From NCBI GenBank assembly GCA_963747235.1, contig CAVVEU010000008.1, forward strand, positions 512,001-576,000: a DNA stretch of 64,000 bases. The letters are read 5' to 3'. This DNA comes from an uncultured Candidatus Rokubacteria bacterium (lineage in GTDB: Bacteria; Methylomirabilota; Methylomirabilia; Rokubacteriales; CSP1-6). Both the position numbers and the translations under genes were made by a program. This document shows, in pieces, positions 58,762 through 64,000 of this stretch. Numbering within the stretch: position 1 is the stretch's first letter; every line of letters starts with the position of its first letter. The notes under the pieces were generated by a model that made no database searches, was not told where the DNA came from, and saw only the letters and a program-made list of their open reading frames with translations.

Positions 58762-59379
58762 ATGGAGATAGTTCGAAGGGAAGTTCTCAAGATCGGCGGC
58801 GACCTCGCGGTCGAGTTCGCCAATACCGTCTCCTCGCCGGCGGGCTCCACCGGCGCGCTCCAGTCCTGGAGCGACCTCATCGACTTTCTCGCGCTGCGCG
58901 GAGGCCTGGCGCCCGGCGACGGAGCCATGCTCCGGGCGATGGGCGCGACGGACGCCCGCCGCTGCGCCGGGGCCTTCGCCCAGGCCCTGCGCCTCCGCGA
59001 GACGATCCGGGCCATGCTCGGCGCCATGGCCAGCAAGCGGCCCCTGCGCGCCGAGTGGGTTGCCGAGGTCAACGAAGCGCTTGCAGCCGGGGCTGGCCCG
59101 TCCCGGCTCCTCCGGCAGGATGGCGGGTGGCGGCTCGGCCTGTCGCCGGGCCCGGCCGGTCCCCTGCAGGCCCTGGCCCCGATCGCCCGCGCCATCGCCG
59201 ATCTGGCCGTGTCGGGCCGGAGCGTGGAGATCGGCAAGTGCGCGAACCCACGCTGCGTGCTCTACTTCCGTGACCGATCGCGGACCCGTCGCCGGCGCTG
59301 GTGCTCGATGTCCGTCTGCGGCAACCGGATGAAGGTGGCCGCCCACGTGCGCCGCCACGGCCGCCGCCGCTCCGCCTAG
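58762..59379 (+). CDS. ABATE/CGNR zinc-finger protein
   Basis: LAVEFANT; CANPRC...DRSR...RRWCSMSVCGNRMK. Confidence 0.92.
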   Translation: MEIVRREVLKIGGDLAVEFANTVSSPAGSTGALQSWSDLIDFLALRGGLAPGDGAMLRAMGATDARRCAGAFAQALRLRETIRAMLGAMASKRPLRAEWVAEVNEALAAGAGPSRLLRQDGGWRLGLSPGPAGPLQALAPIARAIADLAVSGRSVEIGKCANPRCVLYFRDRSRTRRRRWCSMSVCGNRMKVAAHVRRHGRRRSA

Positions 59380-59477: not shown

Positions 59478-60683
59478 ATGGCTCACTTCACCTGCGAGGT
59501 CGTCTACCGCGGCATCTTCCAGAAGAACCTGGCGGCCAGAATATGCCGGGGGATCGTGCTCTCGGCACGCAAGGCCGGCCGGTGGGGGATCGCGTTCGGG
59601 CGCTACGGGGACAGCCCCCAGCGCAACGGGATCCCCGCCAAGGACTTCGCGATCGTCGCGGACACGCAGGAAGAGCTCGAGCAGAACATGGCCCGCTACG
59701 AGCCCAAGGAAGTGGACGTCACGATCTGCGTGGACGACACCCTGTCCAAGGGCGTGGAATCCTGGGCCTGGTACGGGCTCCAGCCGATCAACCGGCTGAC
59801 CGTCTCCGGCGGCACCGTGCTGATGACCTCGCTGCAGAACCCGGCCCAGCTCCTGAAGGACATCCACAAGAAGGACGCGCCATATAACCTGGCCCTCATC
59901 CGGGCCAAGGCCTCGTTCTCCGGGCTCTGGGTCTACAAGGAAGACCACACCGAGGCGCGGATCCTGGGCGCCCTGGCCCGGATCCAGCCCGAGTTCCTGT
60001 CGCTGGACGCGGTGTGCCAGGCCATCAAGGAGGCCGAGTGGGGCTCCGATCTCAAGGTGGCCTCGGCCCGCAAGGCCCACGAGCGCCTGGAGACCCAGCC
60101 GATCAAGATCACCGAGGGCAATGCGGAGACCCCGTTCTCCTTCGAGAAGCCGAAGTGGTGGGAGATGCGCGAGGGTGTGACCATCCCGGCCATCCCCATC
60201 GGCAAGCCGATGGAGGGGGGCAAGGGCTACGTGCCCGAGCGCAACCCGTACTTCAAGAAGTTCACCACCCGCACGATGCGGCCGGTGATCGACTTCGACA
60301 AGTGCGTGAAGTGCACCCTCTGCTGGATCCAGTGCCCCGACTCCTGCTTCGACGTCACCCCGGACGGCCTCTACGACGCCAACATGGAATCCTGCTGCGG
60401 CTGCGGCGTCTGCGAGGCGGTGTGCCCGGCCAAGGAATGCGTGACCATGGTGCGCGAGGACGCCTTCGAGGACAACGCGAGCCAGTGGGAGATGTGGCGT
60501 ACCGACAAGGCCACGTACACGACGTGGATGACCGACAAGATCCACAGCAAGGAGCACATCACCCGGTCCCACGGGTTCCGATTCCGCGGCCAGTACGAGG
60601 AAGAGATCAAGCAGGAGCTGGAGTCGGGCGGCATCGAGATCACTGCGGGCATTCCCGGCGAGAACGCCGACTCGAAGAAGTAG
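59478..60683 (+). CDS. 2-oxoacid:ferredoxin oxidoreductase fused gamma/delta subunit (oxalate oxidoreductase delta-like)
   Basis: Gamma-like N-domain (YGDSPQRNGIP); RPVIDFDKCVKCTLCWIQCP and CCGCGVCEAVCP 2x[4Fe-4S]. Confidence 0.85.
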   Translation: MAHFTCEVVYRGIFQKNLAARICRGIVLSARKAGRWGIAFGRYGDSPQRNGIPAKDFAIVADTQEELEQNMARYEPKEVDVTICVDDTLSKGVESWAWYGLQPINRLTVSGGTVLMTSLQNPAQLLKDIHKKDAPYNLALIRAKASFSGLWVYKEDHTEARILGALARIQPEFLSLDAVCQAIKEAEWGSDLKVASARKAHERLETQPIKITEGNAETPFSFEKPKWWEMREGVTIPAIPIGKPMEGGKGYVPERNPYFKKFTTRTMRPVIDFDKCVKCTLCWIQCPDSCFDVTPDGLYDANMESCCGCGVCEAVCPAKECVTMVREDAFEDNASQWEMWRTDKATYTTWMTDKIHSKEHITRSHGFRFRGQYEEEIKQELESGGIEITAGIPGENADSKK

Positions 60684-60698
60684 GGGAGGACTGAGACC

Positions 60699-61927
60699 AT
60701 GGCCGTCGAGACCAAGCCCGCAGGAGCAGTCGCCGACCACAAGGAGATGCTGATCTCCGGCAGCGAGGCCTGCGCCGAGGCGCTGACCCTGGCCGATATC
60801 GACGTGGTGACCGCGTACCCGATCCGGCCCTACGACACCGTCATGCAGGCCATCGCCAAGAAGATCGCCAACGGCCACCTGGAGGCGGAATACATCGTCG
60901 CCGAGGGCGAGCACAGCCAGTTCGAGATCGTCAAGCACGCCTCCACGGTGGGGGCGCGCGTGTTCTGCGGCTCCTCCGGCGTCGGCTGGATGTACGCGAT
61001 GGAGTGCCTCGTCGTCACCCCGCCGCTGCGCGTGCCGATGGTCTGCATGGTCGGCAACCGGGCGCTCGACGATCCGGGCGCCTTCGGCGTCGAGCACAAC
61101 GACGCGCTGGTCGTCCGCGACCTGGGCTGGATGCTGATCTGGGTGGATACCGCCCAGGAGATGCTCGACACCACGCTGCTCGCCTACCGCATCGCGGAGG
61201 ACCGGCGCGTGTTCCTGCCCATCGCGATCTCCGCGGACGGCGCCTTCCTCACGCACTCCCAGACCATCTGTCAGGTGCCGAGCCGGGCCCTGGTGGACAA
61301 GTTCCTCCCGCGCTACGACCGGGGCGACCTGCAGCTACATCCGGACAACCCGATCACGGTGGCGCCCCAGGCCAACGAGGACTGGGTCATCGAGATCCGG
61401 CGCCAGAACGACGAGGCGATGAAGCGGGCCAGCACCGTGATCGAGGAGGCCTACGCGGACTTCCGCAAGATCATGGGCCGCGCGCCCGAGAACCCGTGGT
61501 TCGAGGAGTACATGACCGAGGACGCGGAGATCATCCTGGTCGGCATGGGGACGATCTCGCTGCCGATGAAGGTCGGCATTCGCAACATGCGGGCGCAGGG
61601 CAAGAAGGTCGGCCTGGTGCGGCCGCGGTGGTTCCGCCCGTTCCCGACCGACCGGCTGGTGAAGGCCCTCTCGAAGGCTTCGGCCATCGGCGTCATCGAC
61701 CGCGACTATTCCTTCGGCTCGCCCTTCAATTCGGGGGTGGTCGCCAACGAGATCCGTGCCGCCATGTACAATGCGGACAAGCGCCCGCCGCTGCTCAGCT
61801 TCATCTGCGGGCTCGGCGGCCGTGAGGTCACCCTGGAAGACGTCGCCAAGGCCGCGGACATGTGCTACGCGGCCGCGAAGGCCGGGAAGTCCGACCCCAA
61901 GACGCATTGGCTCGGCGTCGAGAGTAG
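60699..61927 (+). CDS. 2-oxoacid:ferredoxin oxidoreductase alpha subunit (oxalate oxidoreductase-like); terminal frameshift extends ORF to 62108 as sequenced
   Basis: YPIRP, EGEHS, GSSGVG, NRALDDPGAFG, RPFP, GLGGRE. Confidence 0.88.
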
Positions 61928-61931
61928 CGCT

Positions 61932-61964
61932 GCGAGCCGCAGCCGCAGGCGAGGCGAGCGAATA
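61932..61964 (+). repeat. Second copy of the 33-bp structured element
   Basis: GCGAGCCGCAGCCGCAGGCGAGGCGAGCGAATA, 30/33 identical to the reverse complement of 31882-31914. Confidence 0.7.
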
Positions 61965-61978
61965 CTAGGGAGACCTAC

Positions 61979-62989
61979 ATGGCTGACACCGCATTCACGA
62001 ACGCGACGCAGATCCTGGAGCCCTTCAAGGGCGTCAAGAAGGTCACGATCGAGGAGTACTTCACCTCCGGTCACCGCACCTGCCAGGGCTGCGAGTCGGC
62101 CCTCGTGATGAAGCTCATGGTCAAGGCCGCGGGCCCGCGCACGATCGTGCTCGGCTCGACCGGCTGCATGTACGTGGCCAACACCACGTACTACACGACC
62201 CCGTGGGTGGTGCCGTGGATGCACACCCAGCTCGGCTCGTCGGGCTCGGCCGCGCTCGGCACCGCGGCCGGACTCAAGGCCCTCATGAAGAAGGGGAAGA
62301 TGAAGTCGGAGCCCATCAACGTCATCGCCTTCTGCGGCGACGGCGGCGGCGCCGACATGGGGCTGGGCGCGATCTCGGCGACGCTGACCCACAAGGAGTA
62401 CAACTCGCTGATCCTGATGTACGACAACGAGTCGTACGCCAACACCGACATCCAGCTCTCGGGCTCCACGCCGTACGGCGCGAACACCACGTTCAGCCCG
62501 CCCGGCTCGGTCAAGCGCATCATCCACACCCGCTGGAAGAAGAACACCGCGGGCATGCTGGCGGCCGGGCACCCGGAGTGCCGGTACGTGGCCACGGTGG
62601 ACGCCTCCTACGCGGTCGAGATGATGAACAAGGTCCGGAAGGCGCTCACCATCGGCGGGCCGACCTTCATCCACTCGCTCGACCCGTGCCCGAAGGGCTG
62701 GGACTACGACCCGATGCTCTCCCACGAGCTCGGCGAGCTGGCCGTCGAGACCGGCGTCTTCCCGCTCTACGAGGTCGAGGACGGGGTGGTGCGGCACTAC
62801 GGCAAGACCAAGGCCATCGTGGAGGGCCGTCCCCGCAAGCCCGTCCGCGAGTACCTGCTCAAGCAGGGCCGCTTCGCCCACTTCACCGAGGAAGACCTCG
62901 ACTACTTCCAGTCCAAGGTGGACGAGATGTGGGACAAGTGGGAGATCCCGGGCGTGATCCCGTTCTGGAAGGAGCGCCCCGGCAACTAA
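61979..62989 (+). CDS. 2-oxoacid:ferredoxin oxidoreductase beta (TPP-binding) subunit (oxalate oxidoreductase-like)
   Basis: GHRTCQGC, TGCMYVAN, GDGG...YDNESYANT, PCPKGW. Confidence 0.92.
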   Translation: MADTAFTNATQILEPFKGVKKVTIEEYFTSGHRTCQGCESALVMKLMVKAAGPRTIVLGSTGCMYVANTTYYTTPWVVPWMHTQLGSSGSAALGTAAGLKALMKKGKMKSEPINVIAFCGDGGGADMGLGAISATLTHKEYNSLILMYDNESYANTDIQLSGSTPYGANTTFSPPGSVKRIIHTRWKKNTAGMLAAGHPECRYVATVDASYAVEMMNKVRKALTIGGPTFIHSLDPCPKGWDYDPMLSHELGELAVETGVFPLYEVEDGVVRHYGKTKAIVEGRPRKPVREYLLKQGRFAHFTEEDLDYFQSKVDEMWDKWEIPGVIPFWKERPGN

Positions 62990-63040
62990 CGCCCGCCGAA
63001 TCAAGCAGCGAACGGCCGGCCCCGACCTCGAGGAGGGGAC

Positions 63041-64000
63041 ATGACCCGTCAATGGCGACGTCTCGCGATGCTTGTTGCGGTTCTGGTTCTTGTCGCGGTG
63101 GTCGCGACTGCCCCCGGCCGCCCCGGCCTGGGAGCCGAGCAAGCCCATCGAGTTCGTGATCCCCGCCGGCCCCGGCGGGGGCGCGGACCAGATGGCGCGC
63201 CTCATCACGTTGCATCGTCCGAGAAGCACCGGCTTTCCCCGCAGCCGATCATCGCGGTGAACAAGTCGGGCGGCGCCGGCGCGGAAGGGTTCATCCACGT
63301 GAAGGGCAAGAAGGGCGATGCCCACACCGTGGTCATCACCCTCTCCAACCTCTTCACGACGCCGCTGCACACCGGGGTGCCCTTCAACTGGAAGGACCTG
63401 ACGCCGGTCGCTCGCATGGCGCTCGACCAGTTCATCCTGTGGGTGAATACGGATCGGCCGGACAAGATGAACTTCAAGAGCGCGAAGGAGTACATCGCGG
63501 TGGTGAAGGAGCACTCCGGCGGCGCAACCGGATGAAGATGGGCGGGACCGGCTCCGCCCAGGAAGACCAGATCCTCACCATTCAGCTCGAGCAGGCGCTC
63601 GGGGTCAAGTTCACGTACGTGCCCGTTCAAGGGGGGCGGCGAGGTCTGCACCAACCTGATGGGCAACCACGTGGACTCGACGGTCAACAACCCGATCGAG
63701 TGCGCCGGCCAATGGAAGGCGGCGCGGGTACGCCCGCTCGCGGTGTTCGACACCGCGCGCATCCCGGTTCCGGAGTGGAAGGACATTCCGACCGTGAAGG
63801 AGGCGCTCGGGGCCGACATCAGCTACCTGATGCTGCGCGGCATCTTCGGCCCGCCGGACATGCCCAGGGATGCGCTCGAGTGGTACCAGGCGCTGCTCAA
63901 GAAGGTCTACGAGACCCAGGAGTTCAAGGATTACCTGAACCAGGGGGCGCTCAAGCCCGCCTGGGAGACCGGCCCCGAGTTCGTGAAGTGGCTCGGTGAC
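63041..64000 (+). CDS. tctC: Tripartite tricarboxylate transporter substrate-binding protein (TctC/Bug), 3'-partial, frameshifted
   Basis: WEPSKPIEFVIPAGPGGGADQMAR, NKSGGAG, GNHVD, IPTVKE. Confidence 0.85.

Follow-up and report, generated by a model that had tools for sequence, protein, structure and literature searches.

A 64,000-nucleotide stretch of DNA from an uncultured Candidatus Rokubacteria bacterium (the window; G000:C8:512001-576000, in a genome, G000, of 5.57 Mb, 42 contigs and about 71% G+C) ends in a gene cluster that resembles the oxalate oxidoreductase (OOR) of Moorella thermoacetica. Three tightly packed open reading frames (ORFs) on the same (+) strand, at window positions 59478-62989, encode the gamma-delta, alpha and beta subunits of a 2-oxoacid:ferredoxin oxidoreductase (OFOR). 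A preliminary description, made by a model from the sequence alone, had read them as an OOR-clade enzyme with an altered switch loop, linked to a carboxylate importer of the tripartite tricarboxylate transporter (TTT) type. We re-examined the ORFs and their translations, using Pfam for domains, profile matches to the PDB for structures and the NCBIfam cut-offs for equivalogs. The enzyme belongs to a sister group of the OOR-type enzymes (type A), which we call type B and in which the altered loop is invariant. In window coordinates, the features are as follows.

59478..60683, + strand: gamma-delta subunit, 401 amino acids (aa), with a domain III-like N-terminal part, a dicluster ferredoxin domain (aa 263-330) and a tail (aa 331-401)
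60468..60680, + strand: C-terminal tail of the gamma-delta subunit (aa 331-401, about 70 aa); query residue 330 aligns with the last residue of the OOR chain
60699..62108, + strand: alpha subunit ORF as assembled, 469 aa, with POR_N and PFOR_II; overlaps the beta gene
60816..60830, + strand: YPIRP motif of alpha; its Arg43 is Arg31-alpha of OOR in the alignment to 5c4i_A
61056..61088, + strand: switch-loop equivalent of alpha, NRALDDPGAFG, with R121, D125, A128 and F129
61979..62989, + strand: beta subunit, 336 aa, with TPP_enzyme_C and the site for thiamine pyrophosphate (TPP) and Mg, GDGG..YDNESYANT; matches 5c4i_C (E, 2.9e-88)
62441..62449, + strand: N155-T156-D157 of beta; N155 aligns with the pocket Asn, and D157 is diagnostic of type B

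Domains I and II were recognized in the alpha subunit as POR_N (182.3 bits, 1.6e-53) and PFOR_II (102.3 bits, 2.1e-29). Pfam further found TPP_enzyme_C in beta (6.7e-14) and a 4Fe-4S dicluster domain in the gamma-delta subunit, which has two CxxCxxCxxxCP motifs, starting at aa 276 and aa 306. All of the motifs named in the preliminary description were indeed found again, YPIRP, EGEH, GSSGVG and NRALDDPGAFG in the alpha ORF and GHRTC, TGCMYVAN, YDNESYANT and PCPKGW in the beta ORF. The TPP/Mg site of beta (GDGGGADMG...YDNESYANT) is intact, and beta has C35, C38, C63 and C237 for the proximal [4Fe-4S] cluster; type A and type B each keep these four cysteines in at least 90% of sequences.

Relation to oxalate oxidoreductase

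In the Moorella OOR (PDB 5C4I, 5EXD, 5EXE), as here, alpha comprises domains I-II, beta domain VI and the third chain domains III-V. This three-subunit layout had been claimed for the window, and the ORFs and the PDB and Foldseek matches all agree with it. The best PDB matches were the Moorella OOR chains for alpha (5c4i_A, 1.3e-92), beta (5c4i_C) and the III-V chain (5c4i_B, 1.2e-19). The next solved structure was the four-subunit pyruvate:ferredoxin oxidoreductase (PFOR) of Methanosarcina acetivorans (9BT4, PorABCD), with 4.6e-62 and 3.1e-59. It is like the window's enzyme in its domain set, its cofactor motifs and the sizes of alpha and beta, but it has YPITP, a hydrophobic pocket loop and separate gamma and delta subunits, and it stands on the other side of the 100/100 split in the tree described below. 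The OOR equivalogs of NCBIfam (NF045790/1/2) were top-ranked for every subunit, yet all scores lay below the cut-offs; PorB on beta was likewise below its cut-off (285.6; cut-off, 405).

The gamma-delta subunit aligned with 5c4i_B in two stretches, of which the gamma-domain stretch was weak (i-Evalue, 0.0058). An AlphaFold2 model of this subunit from 17 type B sequences had a moderate mean predicted local distance difference test score (pLDDT) of 61.7 and was better in the first 215 residues. Foldseek matched the model best to the III-V chain of Moorella OOR (E, 9.9e-17) and, in second place, to the PorC-type gamma subunit 2raa (4.3e-10; TM score of 0.72 on the target). Since the best match is the OOR III-V chain, the gene is regarded as a gamma-delta fusion as in OOR. 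Moorella OOR is thus the best match in sequence and fold and falls into the same clade; type B differs from it in the gamma domain, which is only a weak match, in the additional tail of about 70 aa and in scores below the OOR cut-offs.

In a search of 1.84 billion cluster representatives, few relatives of full length came to light that lie between the group of the window and the ordinary PorA-like proteins, namely P0122 (69% identity), P0132 (46%) and P0133 (43%). In a motif table of representatives of at least 300 aa, [YF]PIRP was restricted to these close groups, and the relatives outside had YPITP or similar. The loop read DRTLDPPGDFG in type A, NRALDDPGAFG in type B, which includes the window, and NRALDDPGNFA in a single sequence that we call type C. 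With the OOR alpha model (cut-off, 500), the type A protein P0133 passed (583.1), whereas P0122 of type B (399.1) and P0132 of type C (385.4) failed.

The alpha tree was calculated with IQ-TREE under LG+C20+F+G4 by posterior mean site frequencies (PMSF); it is unrooted and has 71 rows, with the long P0193 left out and residues 1-290 of the Moorella-like P0201 added. Types A, B and C, all with YPIRP, were split from 44 YPITP rows at 100/100, and a quick tree that included P0193 agreed. Type B (13 rows) and type A (13 rows, including the Moorella-like sequence) were each recovered at 100/99; the two are sisters, and the one type C sequence stands next to type B. The window's alpha therefore stands with the OOR types, apart from the YPITP relatives of the PFOR and VOR kind, as the preliminary description had proposed; clustering with canonical CoA-dependent PFORs was not seen. 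Its host has a genome of the Rokubacteria/Methylomirabilota type, so that the enzyme does occur outside the acetogens.

Residue pattern of types A and B

The OOR numbering in the preliminary description agrees with the alignment to 5c4i_A: R43, R121, D124, D125, A128 and F129 of the window correspond to R31, R109, D112, P113, D116 and F117 of OOR. As had been noticed, both arginines and the Phe are kept, Ala stands at the position of Asp116 and an Asp (D125) stands three residues earlier. We compared 80 type B alphas (79 loci and the window) with 94 of type A, and 73 type B with 71 type A betas. The patterns by which the type B loci were found accepted either D or P at position 125 and left position 128 out; the type A proteins came from a word search with P0133.

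YPIRPY was present in 80/80 type B and 91/94 type A alphas. The loop NRALDDPGAFG was identical in all 80 type B sequences, so that the altered switch loop is fixed in the whole sister group; ..LDPPGDFG was present in all 94 of type A. Asp replaced the Pro113 equivalent in every type B alpha, and every type A alpha had Pro. Common to both types at 95% or more were 87 alpha positions, including R43, R121 and F129. In beta, position 157 was Asp in 100% of the 73 type B sequences and Gly in 100% of the 71 type A sequences. D157 corresponds to Gly145 of OOR beta and lies two residues past N155, which is N143-beta of OOR by alignment register. By motif register, N155 stands five residues past the Mg-binding Asn, like Leu123b past Asn118b in StOFOR1. 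PMC5020499 equates Leu123b of StOFOR1 with Asn996 of DaPFOR, which lines the substrate pocket. It also describes Arg31 of OOR as a provider of the oxalate binding site, and both Arg31 and Asp116 as important for a 'bait and switch' in which a 'plug loop' moves.

Type B thus resembles Moorella OOR in Arg31 of YPIRP, Arg109 and Phe117, in the TPP site, in the four beta cysteines and in the two ferredoxin-type cluster motifs, and differs from it invariantly in Ala for Asp116, Asp for Pro113 and Asp for Gly145 of beta. As judged from the alignments, type B retains the bait and is without the known switch residue, with two new invariant aspartates near the same pocket. The acid seems to have been relocated rather than lost, with alpha D125 and beta D157 as candidate replacements of Asp116.

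Trp-rich inserts had been reported in the gamma domain. A Trp-rich addition does exist, but it lies mainly elsewhere: the largest addition relative to the Moorella chain is the C-terminal tail, with 3 of the 11 Trp residues. It is absent from the 315-aa III-V chain of Moorella and present in 17/17 aligned type B sequences, across which about 45 residues, from its start to an RSHGF..GQY motif, are conserved. Invariant in all 17 are F330, D332, N333, Q336, W350, R363, H365, G366, F367, G371, Q372 and Y373. The motif can be written F.DN[AS]SQ[WFY]E...RSHGF[RQ][YFI][RK]GQY, with the consensus FxDNASQWE...RSHGFRYRGQYE. That the tail shields the clusters in oxygen-exposed hosts is a guess.

Gene neighborhood

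The genes that flank the enzyme within the window are the following.

58762..59379, + strand: putative regulator with ABATE (Pfam, 2.1e-17) and CGNR zinc finger (zf-CGNR, 2.3e-17) domains, directly upstream
63041..64051, + strand: tctC, for the periplasmic binding protein of a TTT system; runs past the window end at 64000 and has about five indels

Further upstream lie a MOSC gene on the opposite strand and pdxT. The ABATE/CGNR regulator was found by tblastn in only 1/80 related loci (L002) and does not belong to the conserved cluster. Downstream of beta follow, in order, tctC, tctB, tctA, a TerC-family gene, a gene for an FCD-type GntR regulator and a gene for pyruvate phosphate dikinase (PPDK). 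That tctC follows beta had been noticed before; Pfam recognized TctC on two pieces (27.6 and 17.5 bits), and the full set is present, with TctB at 71.3 bits (1.1e-19) and TctA in three pieces (195, 160.5 and 107.4 bits) that together span profile positions 1-423. The families stand in the canonical order of a TctCBA transporter. The TerC-family membrane protein (G000:C8 578069-578783, equal to window positions 66069-66783), whose gene many Rokubacteria loci have between tctA and the GntR gene, might conceivably be linked to metal ions that enter with the acid.

When 185,579 species genomes were scanned with patterns, at least 585 loci were found, and the neighborhood survey used the best 80 of them. 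According to the identity of their alphas to that of the window, these fell into a group of 36 Rokubacteria-type loci (at least 79%), 27 of them labelled Rokuibacteriota or Methylomirabilota, and a group of 44 mostly acidobacterial loci (66-71%), 35 of them labelled Acidobacteriota. The order of the genes proved to be conserved. The region downstream of beta was evaluable in 30 and 35 loci, respectively. A TTT importer followed in 29/30 loci of the first group, which bears out the proposed link, versus 2/35 of the second. A transporter of the major facilitator superfamily (MFS), OFA family, followed on the same strand in 0/30 versus 23/35, and neither of the two in 1/30 and 10/35. Outside the evaluable set, one Rokubacteria-type locus (L020) had an MFS gene in place of the TTT genes. 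The classical TctCBA system carries citrate; here, unlike there, the system is tied to an OOR-like enzyme. The FCD-GntR gene lay downstream in 28 loci of the first group and directly upstream in 32/37 of the second. The MFS protein of L059, the copy that we scored, reached 471.1 on the oxalate/formate antiporter model TIGR04259 (cut-off, 335).

A gene for an FmdA/AmdA-family amidase was observed near type B loci of the acidobacterial group (6/44) and near one locus of type A (L037:10404-11768 on the - strand, L038, L041, L046, L047, L063 and L091). Through this amidase, the pathway may be supplied with a small acid from its amide, for instance oxamate or formamide.

Type A loci and tandem clusters

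The type A loci examined were 80 kept from a pattern scan of metagenome contigs (L084-L163). Their order is FCD-GntR, a CDC48-like AAA ATPase, gamma, a GltD-like flavoprotein, alpha, beta, further genes and an OxlT-like MFS transporter. The GltD-like NAD(P)-binding iron-sulfur flavoprotein stood directly before alpha in 57/57 evaluable loci, the CDC48-like AAA ATPase was present in 39/45, GntR in 44/45 and the MFS gene downstream in 21/36. Gamma is a separate gene in which Pfam detected POR (35 bits). In L094 (1185-5961), alpha scored 588.4 on the OOR model (cut-off, 500) and the MFS protein 477.7 on TIGR04259. Taken together, this gene set suggests that type A is an NAD(P)-linked OOR complex that differs from the Moorella enzyme.

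Soil type A and type B share the clade and the FCD-GntR family, their OxlT-like MFS genes are near-orthologous (those of type A loci being 70-86% identical to the L059 gene after type B), and sometimes the two stand in tandem. In contrast to type B, type A passes NF045791, keeps DRTLDPPGDFG and has a separate gamma subunit with a POR match; the GltD-like flavoprotein and the CDC48-like AAA ATPase occur with type B only at tandem loci. Since the regulators are shared and the transporters near-orthologous, the same or a very similar substrate is indicated for both types.

Clusters of the two types adjoin on the same contig in L146 (2-8358), L163, L099, L068 and L060. Together with the different electron-transfer partners, this tandem arrangement indicates that the two are non-redundant isoenzymes. 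In L146, the sole oxalate/formate-antiporter-like MFS gene found stands after the type A genes. A search of five type B genomes for type A with P0133 as the query gave nothing above 46% identity, and type B itself matches at that level. In two of these five type A-less genomes, type B occurs twice, the additional cluster being complete and having GntR and MFS genes. These second clusters, L082 (G001:C1:1280000-1296000) and L083 (G002:C13:346000-362000), are acidobacterial, and their alphas are 67-71% identical to that of the window, with the loop NRALDDPGAF.

Frame breaks and assembly quality

As assembled, the alpha ORF runs on into the beta gene and tctC is interrupted. All 10 aligned alpha homologues (10/10) are 409-410 aa long and end in HWLGVRE, from which we concluded that the window is without one base near 61918; the true alpha product is most likely of 409 aa, with its end near 61927. 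As a reference for indel positions we used L002, a related locus with about 90% DNA identity to the window, and we aligned short-read contigs of other samples (X1, X2, X3 and the soil metatranscriptome X15). Relative to L002, the differences are as follows.

56913, 56943, 56960 and 57138, ORF between pdxS and pdxT: one extra base each
58484, MOSC gene: one base missing
61919, last codons of alpha: one base missing (after about 61918)
63103-63109, 63210-63213, 63219-63221 and 63621-63625, tctC: one extra base each
63524-63525, tctC: two extra bases
65063 and 65570 (G000:C8 577063 and 577570), tctA: one extra base each
66461 (G000:C8 578461), TerC-family gene: one extra base

The X1 contigs were 97-99% identical to the window on long pieces. 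The tctC indels at 63109, 63213 and 63221 were absent at full depth in the X1 and X3 contigs; the indel at 63621 was likewise missing from the full depth of X1, but from 7.4 out of 21.2 for X3. At 63524, the X1, X2 and X3 contigs all had one additional base. At the alpha end, one X1 contig had an extra A after 61918 and one X15 RNA contig joined the frame to V-R-E-stop; X3 and X15 also cover 61918 without an exact one-base insertion, so that the corrected end rests on two contigs. In L002, tctC has no breaks and encodes 331 aa (Pfam TctC, 105.2 bits). Because the indels are absent from L002 and the X1/X3 contigs, errors of assembly are the most likely cause both of the broken tctC frame and of the absent stop codon of alpha.

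If the cluster were decaying in G000, the alpha stop would have been lost and tctC, tctA and the TerC-family gene would be true pseudogenes. The breaks do stand in the assembly, and the source reads are probably not among the four aligned runs, since these contain only 0.60, 0.55, 0.51 and 0.20 of the sampled words of the stretch. We nevertheless consider decay highly improbable: similar breaks occur in unrelated neighbors (the MOSC gene and the ORF between pdxS and pdxT), every break is a one- or two-base indel, the translated pieces are still highly similar to intact orthologues, and short-read contigs at 97-99% identity do not have the breaks. Across the three enzyme genes there is only one such break, within the last two codons of alpha.

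Around the cluster the assembly has about one indel per kilobase, unrelated genes also being broken, and gene calls in G000 therefore need care. Pfam found no family in the ORF between pdxS and pdxT, where the frame is broken. The single-chain PFOR of G000 (L164; G000:C42:16500-22409) is split across several frames, and the radical SAM/SPASM gene upstream reads through into its first piece, giving a single 757-aa ORF; these splits are probably further assembly indels.

Genome content, distribution and expression

G000 has three OFOR alpha loci, namely type B, a KorA-type alpha (TIGR03710, 649.2; cut-off, 482.75) and the single-chain PFOR in pieces (TIGR02176). Since separate PFOR and KorA-type enzymes are thus present, the type B enzyme need not fill their roles. 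Nothing in G000 exceeded the cut-offs for the frc/oxc route, the best scores being 483.5/504.2 (frc-like) and 230.8/739.4 (oxc-like); as the genome is 88% complete, this does not prove absence.

The scan of species-representative genomes found OOR-clade enzymes in at least 585. Type B matches at E 1e-120 or better occurred in 156/251 genomes of the window's phylum, a tally that includes four unpublished genomes (G221, G222, G039 and G049), in 72/104 high-quality genomes of the phylum and in 118/158 genomes of its own family. The hosts of type B are soil phyla and, unlike Moorella, not acetogens. Of 8000 candidates scored in a protein search with alpha, 5549 reached E 1e-20 or better; the top 120 of these were 84-97% identical and bore the source name 'pyruvate ferredoxin oxidoreductase alpha subunit'.

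Six RNA runs contained 0.17-0.20 of the sampled words of the stretch. Contigs from the X15 soil metatranscriptome lay on all three enzyme genes at 90% identity or more, with carry-over of DNA not excluded, and gave a weak hint that type B genes are expressed in soil; the depth of X15 RNA contigs cannot rank the genes.

OOR-type enzymes outside the acetogens are already common, many type A proteins being named 'oxalate oxidoreductase subunit alpha' by JGI. Type B is set apart by its relocated aspartates, its tail, its own gene context and its wide spread in Rokubacteria and Acidobacteria. We found no description of it as a separate group in the literature searched, which left subscription journals mostly outside its scope.

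Proposed function and alternatives

We favor the view that type B is a CoA-independent oxalate-oxidizing isoenzyme with a rearranged acid and would give this a probability of roughly 0.55. Indirect support for oxalate oxidation comes from the OxlT-type MFS genes that stand beside many of the clusters. The enzyme would be a (gamma-delta/alpha/beta)2 assembly with TPP and iron-sulfur clusters. A small dicarboxylate, most likely oxalate, would be imported by the TctCBA system encoded downstream and held between the retained R43 and R121. It would then add to TPP and lose one CO2, and the resulting carboxyl-TPP would be oxidized in two one-electron steps, through three [4Fe-4S] clusters, by a ferredoxin-like acceptor. 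The second CO2 would be released without coenzyme A, the acid needed after the first decarboxylation being supplied from the new positions, alpha D125 and beta D157. Since Ala128 replaces Asp116 and these two aspartates are new, the change of charge is probably supplied differently or permanently present. The FCD-type GntR regulator of the cluster probably senses the acid. All of these steps are deduced from homology with OOR, and so are the choice of substrate, the release without CoA, the part played by the two new aspartates and the identity of the acceptor. As a general statement in PMC12337175, all OFORs, PFOR among them, need CoA, with OOR as the exception.

Several observations weigh against this assignment. 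All subunits scored below the OOR cut-offs (alpha, 361.9/500; beta, 347.3/590; delta, 81.5/230), and PorA_Arch came close behind the OOR model on alpha with 330 bits (cut-off, 550). The Asp116 equivalent in the switch/plug loop is missing from 80/80 type B alphas, with Ala instead, and is Asp in 94/94 of type A. Between the two types, 57 alpha positions are fixed differently (at least 90% on each side), and beta has 86 such diagnostic positions. The gamma domain is divergent: Pfam found no family in aa 1-261 of gamma-delta and did not detect POR there. The tandem clusters argue against simple redundancy. PPDK genes in 23/36 Rokubacteria-type loci and genes for phosphoenolpyruvate carboxykinase (PEPCK) in 7/44 of the others fit C3/C4 acids equally well, and the L059 MFS protein also passed the L-lactate transporter model (331.8; cut-off, 320). 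We know of no TTT system that carries oxalate, although no search was made for one, and the literature searched held no biochemistry on any type B member.

An alternative is an enzyme of the same fold and clade that acts on another small polar or anionic 2-oxoacid, such as glyoxylate, oxamate, mesoxalate, hydroxypyruvate or oxaloacetate. Product release might then involve CoA or water, and the enzyme may represent a new OFOR substrate class beside canonical OOR. The Ala in place of the switch Asp aligns near Leu121/Ile123, described in PMC5020499 as lining the pocket of DaPFOR, and since Ala is small, the pocket would be enlarged. The many diagnostic positions, the non-redundant roles suggested by the tandem clusters, the TTT importer that Rokubacteria have instead of the OxlT-like MFS, the match of the L059 protein to the lactate model, the recurrence of PPDK, PEPCK and FmdA/AmdA-family genes nearby and the scores below the OOR cut-offs can all be read in this way. 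However, type B retains the pair of arginines that holds the dicarboxylate, near-orthologous MFS genes and one regulator family are found with clusters of both types, and the tandem isoenzymes may differ solely in the electron acceptor, GltD-like in the one and their own ferredoxin domain in the other; the CoA site gives evidence neither way. We regard another 2-oxoacid as the main rival, possible but less likely than oxalate. Much less credit is due to the public annotation as an ordinary PFOR, which we consider very improbable. Close homologues are so named by their sources, the PorA_Arch score is near the 362 bits of the OOR model and a PPDK gene lies downstream, but Arg replaces the Thr of YPITP, the 44 YPITP relatives are split off at 100/100, the PorA score is well below its cut-off and G000 has a separate single-chain PFOR. 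Pyruvate reportedly inactivates the Moorella OOR (Pierce et al. in 2017).

A more far-reaching proposal can be put forward only tentatively: type B would be a mechanistically distinct, 'switch-less' relative of OOR whose acid has left the mobile alpha loop for fixed positions (alpha D125 and beta D157), with a tail added to the ferredoxin domain, in largely aerobic soil phyla. In one version it would be the main, hitherto unrecognized, route of soil-oxalate oxidation in Rokubacteria and many Acidobacteria, yielding low-potential electrons; in another, it would act on a related acid (oxamate, glyoxylate or mesoxalate).

Implications

The available part of a review (PMC11045627) names OOR for Moorella only. 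Type B genes are currently annotated as pyruvate ferredoxin oxidoreductase.

Oxalate is among the commonest low-molecular-weight acids released to soil by plants and fungi, and its use by bacteria is usually attributed to the CoA-dependent frc/oxc route. If type B oxidizes oxalate, a large unmeasured share of soil oxalate turnover may use a ferredoxin-reducing enzyme. If a related acid is the substrate, type B would be the first new substrate class of the enzyme family since OOR. The natural replacement of Asp116, together with two candidate compensating aspartates, makes the role of this residue in the 'bait and switch' testable by a three-residue swap.

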